From Corynebacterium glucuronolyticum (lineage in GTDB: Bacteria; Actinomycetota; Actinomycetes; Mycobacteriales; Mycobacteriaceae), in assembly GCA_022772305.1 (NCBI GenBank), contig JALFAQ010000006.1:5478-69477 (forward strand): DNA of 64,000 nt, in the 5' to 3' direction. How positions within the stretch are numbered: the stretch's first letter is position 1; each line of letters opens with the position of its first letter. The position numbers and the translations under genes are program-made. Of the stretch, positions 26,641-30,366 are shown one piece after another. The notes beneath the pieces are model-generated. The model searched no databases and was not told where the DNA came from. It saw only the letters and a program-made list of their open reading frames with translations.

Positions 26641-28345
26641 GCCACAGCAATCGGAAACCCGCGACCTCCTAGCCCTCGATGGGTTCTGGCAGTTTTCGCT
26701 CGACGGAAAGACGTACGACCGCGAGATGGCCGTCCCCGGCTCCGTCAACGACGTGTTCGCGGATTCCGAGGTGCGCGACCACGTGGGCGTGTACTTCTAC
26801 AAGCGTGACATCTTCGTCCCGCGCTCCTTCACCGACAAGGTGAGCCTGCGGTTCGGGTCCGTCACCCACCACGCTGTTGTGCGGGTAAACGGCGAGGAGG
26901 TCGGTCGCCACAAGGGTGGCTACCTGCCGTTCGAGTGCGACATCACCGATCTGGTCACGCCGGGCACGACGTGCGAGGTCATCGTTGAGGTGGATAACCG
27001 CTTGGACATGACGTGCATCCCCCCGGGCGAGATCGTTGAGCTTCCCGACGGTCGTCTGTGCCAGGAATACATGCATGACTTCTACAACTACTCCGGCATT
27101 CACCGCACCATTTACCTGGTGAATAAGCCCGAGCGCCACGTGTGCGATGTCCGCATCGTCGCCGGCATGGACGGCGTGTGCGAGTACGAGGTCACACAGT
27201 CGGCACCCGGCGATGTCCGGGTGACCATCGAAGAGAGTGAGGTCAGTGGGACCGGGGAGTCGGGGCGGTTGAGCGTCGACAAGCCACAGCTGTGGACCCC
27301 CGGCATCGGTGGCCTGTACACCCTCCGTATTGAGCTTCTCGACGGCGAGTCGGTCGTCGACTGCTACCGCGAGCCGTTCGGCTTCCGCACCGTAGAGGTC
27401 AAGGGACACGAGTTCCTCATCAACGGTAAGCCCTTCTACTTCACCGGCTTCGGCATGCATGAAGACCACGAGACGCTGGGCAAAGCCCACAACGACGTCT
27501 CCGTGCAGCGCGATATGGAACTCCTGCACTGGATCGGCGCGAACTCCCTACGCACCAGCCACTACCCCTATGCAGAAGAGTGGATGGACTACTGCGACAG
27601 GCACGGCATCGTCGTCATCGATGAGACCCCCGCCGTGGGCCTCAACATGGCTGTCGCCGGTGGCATCCTCGGCAGCGCCGCCAAGAAGACATACAGCCCC
27701 GACACCGTCAACGAAAAGACGCAGGCACACCACGCGGACACCATCCGCGACCTCATCGCCCGCGACAAGAACCGCCCCAGCGTCGTCCTGTGGTCCATCG
27801 CCAACGAACCCGACACCACAGACCCCGACTCCCGGGCCTATTTCGAGCCCCTGGCAGCGCTTGCCCGCGAATGCGACCCCACACGCCCCATCGGCTACGT
27901 CAACGTCATGACCAGCCCCTACGACAAATGCCAGATCACCGACCTCTTCGATGTCATGATGATCAACCGCTACTACGGCTGGTACGTCGATGCAGGCGAC
28001 CTCGAAACCGCGAAGCAACACTTCACCGCGGAACTCAACGGCTGGGTGGAAAGGTTCGGCGACAAGCCGATCATCATCACCGAATACGGAGCAGATACCG
28101 TCTCTGGCCTGCACTCTTTGTATAATTCCCTGTTCACAGAGGACTACCAGGTGGCCTACCTCGAGGCCAACTCCGAGGTATTCGACTCCTGCGACAACGT
28201 CATCGGCGAACACATGTGGAACTTCGCCGACTTCCAAACCAAACCGGGATACGCCCGCGTCGACGGCAACAAGAAGGGTGCATTCACCCGCGACCGTCGC
28301 CCCAAGGCCGCCGCCCGATACTTGAAAAATAGGTGGACCAAATGA
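26633..28345 (+). CDS. uidA: beta-glucuronidase (GH2)
   Basis: GH2 motifs: acid/base WSIANEP, nucleophile ITEYGADT; N-terminus [21 protein letters not shown] resembles GUS; start ATG 26633 overlaps the upstream stop. Confidence 0.85.
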
Positions 28346-30366
28346 AAACAAGTAAAGTTTTCAGCTACGCGCTCGGCGACGTAGCCAACAACCTCTCCTT
28401 CATGATGACCTCCATGTTCCTCATGGTCTTCATGACGGACATCGCCGGCCTCTCCGCCGGTGTCGCCGGCACCATCTACGGTGTAACCAAGGTCTGGGCC
28501 GGTGTCACCGACCTCTTCAGCGGACAGATGGTCGACCGCTTCGACACCCGCTGGGGTCGCCTGCGCCCGTGGATCCTCTTCGGCTCCACCCCGCTTGCCA
28601 TCGTCTTCGTCCTGCTGTTCTCCGTCCCTGCAGGCCTTGGGCCCACGGCGACCGTCGCCTGGATCTTCCTTTTCGACGCCGCCTTCCAGCTCGCCTACTC
28701 CCTGGTGAACATCCCCTACGGCTCCCTGTCCGCGGCCATGACGCAGGACCCTGTCGATCGCTCCAAGCTGTCCGGTGCCCGCTCCATCGCCTCCGCCGTC
28801 ACCGGCGTGGCGCTGTCCGCCGTCATCGCGCCACAGTTCCAGGACACCACCGCCGATGGCGTTCGCCTGAAGTTCACCCTCACCTGTGTAGCCCTGGGCA
28901 TCGTCGCCATCATCTTGTACCTCATCTGTTTTGCCAACGCACGGGAAGTTGTCCCGCGCGGTGGTGAAAAGATCAACATGAAGCGAACGTTCTCGATGAT
29001 CCGGCACAACCGCCCGCTGGTGACCCTATGTCTCGCTGCATTCTTCCTCCTTGGCGCCATGTTCACGATGAACGCCGTGGGAATGTACTACGCTCGCTAC
29101 GTACTCGGCAACGCCGGCTGGTTCACCTACCTCATGCTCGCGCAGACGGTGGGCACCATCCTCGTCGCTAGCTTCGTGCCACAGATCACCGCCAGAATGG
29201 GCAAGCGCAACGGCTACATGGCCGCCGGCCTCGTCGCCATCGCCGGCTACATCCTCATCTTCCTCATGCCCGGCGGCTCCCTACCTGTAGCCATCATTGC
29301 TTGGTTCCTGCTTGGTGTGGGCACCGGTGGAACCAACTCCCTCATGTTCTCCATGCAGGCAGACACCGTGGACTACGGCGAATGGAAGTCCGATATCCGC
29401 GCTGAGGGTGGCTCGTACTCCGTGCTCTCCTTCATTCGTAAGTGCGGCCAGGGCATCGGCGGCTGGATCGGCGGCGCTGTCATCGGCGCCTTTGGCTACG
29501 TGGCCAAGGCCGACACCCAGTCCATTGAGGCTCTCCAGGGCATCCGTATTGCTACCGGCGCGGTCCCCGCAGTCCTCGCTGTCCTCGCCATCGCGGTCAT
29601 GTTCTTCTACCACCTCGACGTGGACACCCACACGCAGATCGTCAGCGAGCTGAACAAGCGTCGCACGCAAAAGGCCGTGGCCACCCACGCCGGCGTGCCC
29701 GCCGAGAGAGTCGTCACCGGCAACGTGGGTGACGGCCGCAACCTACGGATGCGCCGCGAAGGCGAGCACCTCCCGCCGGTCATCACCGTATTCGGTCAGC
29801 GTGGCTCCGGGGCCTCAGAAATCGCCCCAGCACTTGCAGAACGCCTCGGTGTGCCCTACGTGCAGCAGGCGTTTAGCTCGCAAACTCTGTCCCAGGTGGA
29901 TCGCTCCACGCTCATCAGCGACAGCTCGTTTAGCCGCTGGATGCGGTCCGTGTCCCTGCAAGACGAGGCCACCGGCATCGCCGCCGACCGGAAGATCGCC
30001 GCAGACAACACTGCTTTCGTTTTGGAAGCAGTGGACAACGGAGGCGTGCTCCTCGGCCGCAACGGTGCCCTTGTGCTCCGCCACGTGGTCGGTGCCCTGC
30101 ACGTCCGCCTCGTCGCCCCACTGGGCAAGCGCGTCGAACGCGTCATGTACAAGACGGGTCTGAACGCTGCCGAGGCCGAAGAGCAGTGCCACGCAGAAGA
30201 CCGGATCCGCGCTGAGATGGCACGCGCCCTCTACCAGTGGGATCCAAACTCCGATGAATCCTACGACCTCGTCCTCAACACCTCCAGTGTGACCTACGAG
30301 CAGATCGTGGATATCATCGCCGATGTCTACTACGACAAGTACCCCGAGGCGAAACAACAGCGCTAA
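28342..30366 (+). CDS. GPH-family glucuronide/glycoside:cation symporter fused to a C-terminal cytidylate-kinase-like domain
   Basis: Residues about 1-430 are a 12-TM MFS_2/GPH transporter ([13 protein letters not shown] motif). Residues about 475-674 read [27 protein letters not shown]..., typical of the Cytidylate_kin2 family. ATGA overlap with the uidA stop. Confidence 0.75.

Follow-up and report, generated by a model that had tools for sequence, protein, structure and literature searches.

A cytidylate-kinase-like domain with a lysine-less P-loop, fused to a GPH-family symporter of Corynebacterium glucuronolyticum and other Actinomycetota: a possible accessory module for glucuronide uptake

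Transporters of the glycoside-pentoside-hexuronide (GPH) family are textbook models of how secondary transport is controlled, the two standard cases being LacS with its IIA domain and MelB under IIAGlc. In work from the Poolman laboratory, LacS of Streptococcus thermophilus, which transports lactose, is reportedly a GPH protein that carries an IIA(Glc)-like domain at its C-terminus. In MelB-type GPH transporters, which have 12 helices, both termini are cytoplasmic, and in the uidABC operon of E. coli the transporter gene directly follows uidA. Fused sensor domains are also known from other carriers (STAS on SulP, CBS on OpuA and ClC, TrkA_C on various carriers), and PnuC and NadR represent a pairing of a transporter with a kinase. 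Here we describe a GPH symporter with a C-terminal domain of another kind. Its gene occupies positions 28342..30366 (+ strand, stop codon included) of a 64,000-nucleotide stretch of Corynebacterium glucuronolyticum DNA (assembly GCA_022772305.1, contig JALFAQ010000006.1, positions 5,478 to 69,477), which we refer to as the window. The 674-residue product joins a 12-helix transporter to a Cytidylate_kin2-like domain (CK2 domain below) with the fold of nucleoside monophosphate (NMP) kinases. This fold is not known to have been tied to transport before and appears here as the fused cytoplasmic accessory domain of a secondary transporter.

The open reading frame (ORF) listing of the window contains both parts in a single unbroken frame on the + strand, starting with either GTG at 28333 or ATG at 28342 and ending with the stop codon at 30364-30366. 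The ATG version is an exact match to the public C. glucuronolyticum protein MCI6205588.1, whose cluster has 40 members encoded on many contigs, among them complete genomes of about 2.8-2.9 Mb; the GTG-extended version is absent from the protein collection searched. A Pfam scan of the full protein returned three families only, MFS_2, MFS_1 and Cytidylate_kin2, with MFS_2 (PF13347) covering residues 8-426 (E=1.8e-88) and Cytidylate_kin2 (PF13189) residues 480-648 (E=3e-32). The full protein has 581 significant matches in a large protein collection, and in all 120 of the best cluster representatives, with identities down to 58%, PF13347 and PF13189 occur together. The hosts of these 120 include many Corynebacterium species, C. 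glutamicum among them (P0052, genome CP073911), and other Actinomycetota such as Tessaracoccus, Ornithinimicrobium, Knoellia, Trueperella, Georgenia, Ruania, Aestuariimicrobium and Propionibacterium. Both domains exceed their curated thresholds by a wide margin and the architecture is present in every one of the best 120 clusters, so that a chance match is of no concern. Far from being rare, the fused architecture is what members of this transporter clade in Actinomycetota usually have.

An earlier note, made by a model from the letters of this DNA, had described one uninterrupted 674-residue frame combining a transporter with a kinase-like domain, and both the ORF and the Pfam assignments agree with it. 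The note also named two observations that would speak against its proposal: a stop codon or frameshift separating two genes, and a C-terminal region without Cytidylate_kin2 similarity. The proposal withstood both. The identical 674-residue protein is present in many assemblies, all homologs of at least 58% identity are fused, and the C-terminal region scores 112.6 bits with PF13189 against a cut-off of 28. That two genes were merged by a missed stop or frameshift in this particular assembly is thus hardly credible, even though some relatives do have separate transporter and CK2 genes, with an in-frame stop codon between them in four loci (L038, L077, L085, L089). Such an artefact would have to recur in many independent C. 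glucuronolyticum assemblies, complete genomes included, in all 120 best homolog clusters and in 50 of the 80 species-representative loci described below; moreover, the region joining the domains is in frame and has conserved residues, P479 at 90% or more being an example. We therefore rejected this explanation.

The transporter core (residues 8-426, 28363..29619) belongs, by its profile scores, to the GPH:cation symporter family. It matches PF13347 with 297 bits (cut-off 27) over profile positions 1-426 of 427, and it passes the NCBIfam model of the GPH family, TIGR00792, with 381.9 bits (cut-off 231.35) over residues 7-440. The AlphaFold2 (AF2) model of the whole protein (predicted local distance difference test, pLDDT, 81.8; predicted template modelling score, pTM, 0.70) has 12 long helices up to about residue 420, as expected for the 12-helix fold of the major facilitator superfamily (MFS). 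The best fold matches of the full-length model in the PDB are MFSD2A and the melibiose permease MelB (26% identity), with TM-scores of up to 0.89 normalised to the target; the MFS core governed the outcome of this search, which said little about the CK2 domain. Because both termini of MelB-type transporters are cytoplasmic, the extra domain should, by homology, be cytoplasmic as well and tethered under the transporter.

The region between the two Pfam domains (residues 427-479) is 53 residues long and its first half is a predicted helix. This putative cytoplasmic tail helix after the twelfth transmembrane helix (TM12; residues 427-450, 29620..29691) was delineated from the AF2 model and from conservation: H430, L437, R440 and R441 are invariant or at least 90% conserved in 74 fused homologs. 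In several split pairs (L038, L080, L088) the transporter gene likewise ends in an 'E[LV]xERR' tail. The poorly conserved linker proper comprises only about 29 residues (451-479, 29692..29778), as judged from conservation, dN/dS and pLDDT, which is 61-73 here. A linker is thus present as the earlier note had it, but its length of about 45 residues corresponds neither to the inter-domain distance nor to the stretch of low conservation.

The CK2 domain (residues 480 to about 672, 29779..30357) is a member of PF13189: the score threshold, the fold and the type of loop all agree. The Pfam match (112.6 bits, gathering threshold 28, profile positions 1-175 of 176) ends at residue 648, whereas fold and conservation extend to about residue 672. 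A separate AF2 model of residues 461-674 reached a pLDDT of 89.5 and a pTM of 0.85. The closest solved structures are 3hdt and 3fdi, both in the profile search (E=4e-24 and 9e-20) and in the Foldseek search (E=4e-10 and 4.5e-11, TM-scores to target of 0.70-0.84). Both are structural-genomics entries of PF13189: 3hdt is a Clostridium symbiosum protein that its depositors named 'putative kinase', and 3fdi is an uncharacterised protein of Eubacterium ventriosum. The next fold matches after these two in Foldseek are shikimate, CMP, dephospho-CoA and gluconate kinases; CMP kinases also appear in the profile search, with E-values of 1e-6 to 5e-4. A search of the PDB with the single domain sequence gave only marginal matches, the best being 3hdt at E=0.046.

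A HMMER search with the domain collected 2472 relatives at E<=0.001 among 50%-identity representatives. Most of these are free proteins of about 200 residues, 30-43% identical to the domain, and the fused transporters fall into few of the 50% clusters. Five relatives of 388-476 residues contain two Cytidylate_kin2 domains in tandem, as confirmed with Pfam for P0149 and P0278 and as indicated for P0194, P0223 and P0254 by two matched stretches each in the HMMER search. The tandem arrangement is a hint that two copies of the fold may work together.

In the HMMER alignment to the S. aureus CMP kinase 2h92, the loop GQRGSGAS (residues 485-492, 29794..29817) has Ala491 opposite the Walker A lysine. 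The motif quoted in the earlier note starts at residue 481. We tabulated site frequencies over 121 fused sequences, 15 partners from split loci and 111 stand-alone 50%-cluster sequences. Position 491 is Ala in 94% of the fused homologs and Ala, Gly or Met across the three groups; Lys anywhere in the loop was found in only 1 of 121 fused sequences, none of the 15 split partners and 2 of the 111 stand-alone representatives. The degenerate GSG loop pointed out in the earlier note reads GSGA here, and its lack of lysine is shared by nearly all sequences of the three groups. A second loss concerns the GRN motif (residues 572-574, 30055..30063), the counterpart of the CMP-kinase 'GRD': 'GgVilGRn' in the window aligns with 'GIVMDGRD' in 2h92, so that Leu571 stands opposite the Asp of MDGRD, which we take to be a Walker-B-type Asp. 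Position 571 is Leu, Val or Ile in all three groups. Furthermore, the 2h92 stretch 'VDTGAMYR', presumably the S/T-G-x-x-Y-R motif, is replaced by Q509-A-F-S-S513, a motif with little or no variation among the fused proteins. The archaeal CMP-kinase equivalog TIGR02173 is not reached either (35.7-40.1 bits, cut-off 102.1). With neither the Walker A Lys nor the Asp before GR(D/N), and with TIGR02173 below its cut-off, we rejected an active CMP kinase. More generally, the missing Walker A lysine (Ala491) together with Leu571 in place of the DGRD Asp makes ordinary ATP-dependent phosphoryl transfer of the P-loop type very unlikely for this domain, as far as can be judged from its residues.

Other positions have been kept. 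Each of the three groups shows 91-100% conservation at T482, G488, G567, V569, G572, R573, H587, R597, D620 and R623, and 79-97% at G490; G488 and G490 belong to the glycine-rich loop. Several arginines have counterparts in 2h92: R573 lies opposite the Arg of the GRD motif, R597 and R600 face arginines of the 'EERAERR' stretch, and the Arg of 'EARD' aligns with R623. From published CMP-kinase structures we take R573, R597 and R623 to be NMP-site and lid arginines. Their retention is a resemblance to CMP kinases and no sign of activity. A conserved, positively charged Arg/His/Asp pocket is still there, partly overlapping the positions aligned with the CMP-kinase arginines.

Selection on the domain is strong. 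In a comparison with the ortholog from C. pyruviciproducens, the transporter has a dN/dS of 0.13, residues 427-479 one of 0.32 and the CK2 domain one of 0.07; these values come from this one species, those for L015, L016 and L005 being unreliable owing to saturated dS or codon bias. Mean column conservation over 121 sequences is highest in the transporter (0.78), somewhat lower in the CK2 domain (0.71) and lowest in the linker (0.56). By these measures the CK2 domain is under strong purifying selection and constrained at least as much as the transporter.

Taken together, these features lead us to favor, with a confidence somewhat short of even, the reading that the domain serves as an accessory module which binds a ligand, has no catalytic role and modulates the transporter. 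According to this reading, a pseudokinase-type sensor would bind a small anion, in all likelihood a phosphorylated metabolite such as a nucleotide, and would touch the cytoplasmic face or loops of the transporter or its tail helix, thereby tuning uptake to the metabolic state. Such control would be comparable to that exerted by the IIA domain on LacS or by IIAGlc on MelB, and in relatives with split genes the same partnership would act in trans. The earlier note had suggested a regulatory or nucleotide-sensing role by analogy with the IIA domain of LacS. That idea has gained strength on three counts: the residues for phosphotransfer are missing while the Arg/His/Asp pocket is kept, the domain is under strong purifying selection, and in related Actinomycetota transporter and domain are encoded by separate neighboring genes, closely spaced and in either order. 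A broader proposal, which we regard as possible but doubtful, is that PF13189-like pseudokinases constitute a dedicated, hitherto unrecognised class of partner subunits for actinobacterial GPH sugar/uronide symporters, fused in cis or split in trans, that couple uptake to an intracellular nucleotide or metabolite signal.

The same residues could be read differently. The domain might be an active enzyme with unconventional residues that modifies imported glucuronide or hexuronate, or a nucleotide, at the exit of the transporter, a form of metabolic trapping reminiscent of PnuC/NadR. Its fold is that of small-molecule P-loop kinases, including kinases of carboxylate sugars (gluconokinase, shikimate kinase); T482, H587, R573, R597, D620 and R623, at 91-100% across fused, split and stand-alone proteins, look like an active site; the depositors of 3hdt called their protein a putative kinase; and the gene is located in a catabolic operon. 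We nevertheless consider an enzyme improbable. The Walker A Lys is essentially absent, the DGRD Asp position is occupied by Leu, Val or Ile, and the score with the archaeal CMP-kinase equivalog (36-40 bits) is far from 102. In addition, the pathway already has a canonical P-loop kinase nearby (GntK-type, GCGKS), and many fused orthologs lie outside any catabolic operon.

To a purely structural domain, serving oligomerisation, folding, stability, localisation or as a docking platform and having no small-molecule ligand, we assign a similarly small likelihood. The loss of catalytic residues would fit such a role, the tandem proteins P0149 and P0278 are compatible with self-association, and the tight start/stop spacing of the separate genes suggests stoichiometric subunits. 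However, the most conserved sites form a Gly-rich loop and a charged cluster aligned with the CMP-kinase Arg and GRD positions, not a hydrophobic surface, and a dN/dS as low as 0.07 would rather be expected of a specific binding site. The rest of the probability goes to other roles, such as the docking of a further regulator.

The distribution of the two parts across genomes also bears on the proposed accessory module. We scanned one genome per species (GTDB) with a full-length alignment and annotated 80 loci with our own hidden Markov models (HMMs) for both parts; the full-length query biases these 80 loci towards relatives of the transporter and away from stand-alone CK2 genes. The comparison of fused and split orthologs, for which the earlier note had called, came out as 50 fused loci, 16 with adjacent separate genes and 14 in which no CK2 was found. 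In the 50 fused loci the end of the transporter and the CK2 domain share one frame, although the transporter itself is interrupted in five of them (L021, L029, L057, L059, L068), reflecting either errors in metagenome-assembled genomes (MAGs) or pseudogenes. In seven loci CK2 comes after the transporter as a gene of its own, starting with its own Met, and the domain matches lie 90-215 nt apart; the two are separated by an in-frame stop in the four loci named above and lie in different frames in L080, L088 and L090. L088 has uidA, transporter and CK2 as three genes, which is the order of the window, unfused. The opposite order, CK2 before the transporter, was found in six loci (L069 from Micromonospora, L072, L075 and L076 from Intrasporangium, L081, L092); here the domain matches are 38-135 nt apart, and the stop codon of CK2 falls inside this gap. 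Micromonospora lutea and Intrasporangium chromatireducens are examples of split-gene species. In the remaining three linked loci (L078, L082, L091) the order is CK2, uidA, transporter.

The 14 loci without a detected CK2 comprise four cut by contig ends, one with a remnant (L065), three with very short flanks and six with adequate flanks. About 22 unfused loci are therefore informative, and CK2 is linked in 16 of them. If a genome is assumed to have one to few CK2 genes, adjacency within 8 kb is expected by chance in about 1% of cases, and on this assumption the observed linkage is far beyond chance. A distant second GPH subfamily (P0159), fused independently, has the same MFS_2 and CK2 layout at 30% overall identity in an unrelated context (rhodanese, NMO). 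In a neighbor-joining tree of CK2 domains, the fused clade of the window protein forms one large group with L038 nested inside, the CK2-first partners form a separate clade, and P0159 stands on its own branch. According to this tree, a simple one without support values, the parts have probably been joined two or more times and separated at least once.

Several observations from these loci stand apart from the counts. Raineyella antarctica (L063) has, besides the fused gene (8001-9965), a free CK2 gene (13048-13689) about 3 kb downstream on the same strand. The remnant in L065 (7790-9409, a Brachybacterium sp. MAG) is a CK2 fragment in another frame after the transporter, matching profile positions 143-197; it looks like domain decay or an assembly frameshift. 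In the two Intrasporangium loci (L075, 6897-8639; L076, 788-2605) CK2 is the C-terminal part of a frame of about 580 residues, of which the first 370 or so have no Pfam match and may be either nothing more than an open frame in high-GC DNA or an N-terminal extension. L078 (2472-12301, an actinobacterial MAG) encodes on one strand a uxuB-like protein, an FGGY sugar kinase, CK2, a glucuronidase-like protein of glycoside hydrolase family 2 (GH2), a GPH transporter and a phosphoketolase, a differently composed glucuronide cluster that includes a free CK2 gene. Finally, contigs labelled Clostridia bacterium (L030), Acidobacteria MAG (L057) and Gemmatimonadaceae MAG (L074) encode transporters 42-70% identical to the Corynebacterium protein, L030 with the full Corynebacterium-like order lacI-uxaC-uxuB-uidA-transporter-manD-gntK; these three contigs are probably mis-binned.

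A number of points weigh against the proposed accessory module, and the limits of the tree should be counted among them. Both the ligand binding and the regulatory effect of the domain are predictions. The strict conservation of the Thr/His/Arg/Asp cluster across the family could equally reflect an unconventional active site. The interface between domain and transporter is putative. The CK2 partner is not obligatory: none was found within 3 to 8 kb of the close GPH relatives L060, L071, L079, L083, L084 and L087, four of which (L079, L083, L084, L087) adjoin uidA. Nor were the nearest placeable stand-alone CK2 genes (P0143, P0140, P0141) found beside GPH genes; P0141 adjoins an MFS_1 transporter gene, and the contexts of P0139, P0140, P0141 and P0143 have no common theme, one of the contigs being only 1 kb long. 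The CK2 family therefore has roles beyond the partnership with GPH transporters.

Which substrate the transporter might serve is best judged from its surroundings. The fused gene is the last of four tightly packed genes on the + strand with overlapping starts and stops. The first is uxaC, encoding glucuronate isomerase (24047..25456; Pfam, UxaC equivalog passed with 571 against 387), followed by a uxuB-like gene for a reductase of the fructuronate/mannitol family (25453..26640; Pfam, best match fructuronate reductase but below its cut-off) and by uidA, encoding a GH2 beta-glucuronidase (26627..28345; NF007538 equivalog with 763.6 bits against 544, and GH2 Pfam domains). The ATG of the transporter at 28342 overlaps the TGA of uidA at 28343-28345 in an ATGA (28342..28345, + strand, ...aaATGAaaac). 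This overlap suggests that the two genes are translationally coupled, and it is read in the sequence just as the earlier note had it. A terminator-like hairpin with a T-rich tail (30384..30415, + strand; 9-bp stem with 6 G-C pairs and a TCTGCTTCTT tail, a match to the consensus only) begins 18 nt past the stop codon of the fused gene and is the probable end of a uxaC-uxuB-uidA-transporter operon, in which the symporter is expressed together with beta-glucuronidase and the enzymes of the hexuronate pathway.

Upstream of these genes lie a gene for a LacI-family regulator (20891..21934, + strand, Pfam) and, on the - strand, one for a GntP gluconate permease (22567..23901; GntP equivalog 698 against 647). 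LacI homologs also stand upstream of uxaC in most of the orthologous Corynebacterium loci, and the LacI-family regulator is the likely repressor of the operon. Downstream of the fused gene we found a gene for a Bcp/AhpC-type peroxiredoxin, manD for D-mannonate dehydratase (31179..32408, + strand; ManD equivalog 642 against 550) and a gene for a GntK-type gluconokinase with the canonical P-loop GCGKS (32408..32887, + strand; GntK subfamily 199 against 114). The ATG of gntK sits at the stop codon of manD, and the pair is syntenic in the Corynebacterium-type loci L014-L016 and L030 and also in L071. No PfkB-type 2-keto-3-deoxygluconate (KDG) kinase was seen in the examined part of the window, so the GntK-like enzyme might act on the ManD product instead of gluconate. 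Judged by its gene content, the locus is one for glucuronide/hexuronate utilisation. An ORF of 615 residues at 19104-20951 (- strand) matches no Pfam family, shares its position with other long ORFs of the + strand and is possibly no real gene.

Transport of glucuronide or hexuronate by the product of the window gene is thus well supported by genomic context. The glucuronide transporter equivalog NF007353 is the best-scoring specific model, but its cut-off of 528 bits is missed (446.2 bits, residues 5-445). Fused orthologs adjoin uxaC in 15 of 54 cases and uidA in 8 of 54, most of them on contigs labelled Corynebacterium; those of Ornithinimicrobium and Trueperella have no adjacent genes for sugar-catabolic enzymes, and that of Ruania has a gene of glycoside hydrolase family 3 (GH3) downstream. 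Many split or unfused relatives at 40-50% identity adjoin uidA or uxaC. Accordingly, the name 'glucuronide' transporter given in the earlier note fits the coupling to uidA here and the context in several Corynebacterium species, but falls short of the NF007353 cut-off and of many fused orthologs that lack a uidA or uxaC neighbor. For the clade as a whole, transport of glucuronide or hexuronate is less certain.

In a literature search that left most subscription journals uncovered, we found no account of this architecture or of any function of PF13189. Mentions of PF13189 came only from a study of DolP, a BON-domain protein, once as preprint and once as journal article, and the codes 3HDT and 3FDI turned up only with other, irrelevant meanings. 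Databases list the proteins under varying names ('cytidylate kinase family protein', 'MFS transporter', 'GPH:cation symporter', 'glucuronide carrier protein'), and the architecture is very probably listed in InterPro or TCDB. The earlier suggestion that the architecture is undescribed thus holds in so far as no paper was found, but the sequences themselves are widespread and already in databases; what is new is their recognition and interpretation. We expect the fusion to be a mild to moderate surprise to a transporter specialist.

Were the accessory-module reading true, the GPH scaffold would be seen to carry a different control module, showing how sugar and uronide uptake is regulated in bacteria without IIA circuitry. 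The domain would be an actinobacterial functional counterpart of IIAGlc/IIA-domain control and would provide the first function for PF13189. In any case, the fused, split and reordered arrangements offer a functional lead for a family with thousands of members and two orphan crystal structures. With orthologs in the genetically tractable C. glutamicum and with this pattern of arrangements, the hypothesis is directly testable. Since bacterial beta-glucuronidase operons reactivate glucuronidated drugs and hormones, the regulation of glucuronide import in urogenital Corynebacterium is also of some applied interest.

How, then, does the protein compare with known systems? In its working it may be most like LacS with its IIA domain and MelB under IIAGlc. 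LacS and the window protein have the same layout, a 12-TM GPH symporter with a C-terminal soluble cytoplasmic domain of about 160-200 residues, and the IIA domain of LacS is dispensable for the chemistry of translocation while modulating transport. The domains themselves differ: that of LacS has the EIIA fold of the phosphotransferase system (PTS) and undergoes HPr-dependent histidine phosphorylation, whereas that of the window protein has the NMP-kinase/P-loop fold of PF13189, and its signal and mechanism would differ too. Given this C-terminal fold and a Pfam scan without any PTS domain, a LacS-type IIA domain was rejected. UidB (GusB) of E. coli and MelB of Salmonella share the homologous transporter core; however, the E. 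coli proteins end shortly past TM12 without a fused domain, and MelB is regulated in trans by IIAGlc. The stand-alone PF13189 proteins 3hdt and 3fdi share the fold, the lysine-less G-[SA]-G-[GA] loop (GSGA in the window, GSGG in 3hdt) and the GR, H, R and DxxR positions, but they are free Firmicutes proteins of about 200 residues, whereas the window domain belongs to an actinobacterial subgroup fused to or located beside GPH transporters; the loop reads FGQRGSGA in the fused clade and (R/E)xYGSGG in proteins of the 3hdt/3fdi type. With the CMP kinases (2h92, 3akc, 1kdo) the domain has in common the fold, GR(D/N), R597 and R600 at the positions of 'EERAERR' and the DxxR element (R623), but it lacks the Walker A Lys, the Asp before GR(D/N) and the 'VDTGAMYR' stretch. 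Carriers with STAS, CBS or TrkA_C domains and the PnuC/NadR pair are alike in that a soluble nucleotide or metabolite module is attached to, or partnered with, a carrier; they differ in using other folds, none of them Cytidylate_kin2, and NadR is catalytically competent.

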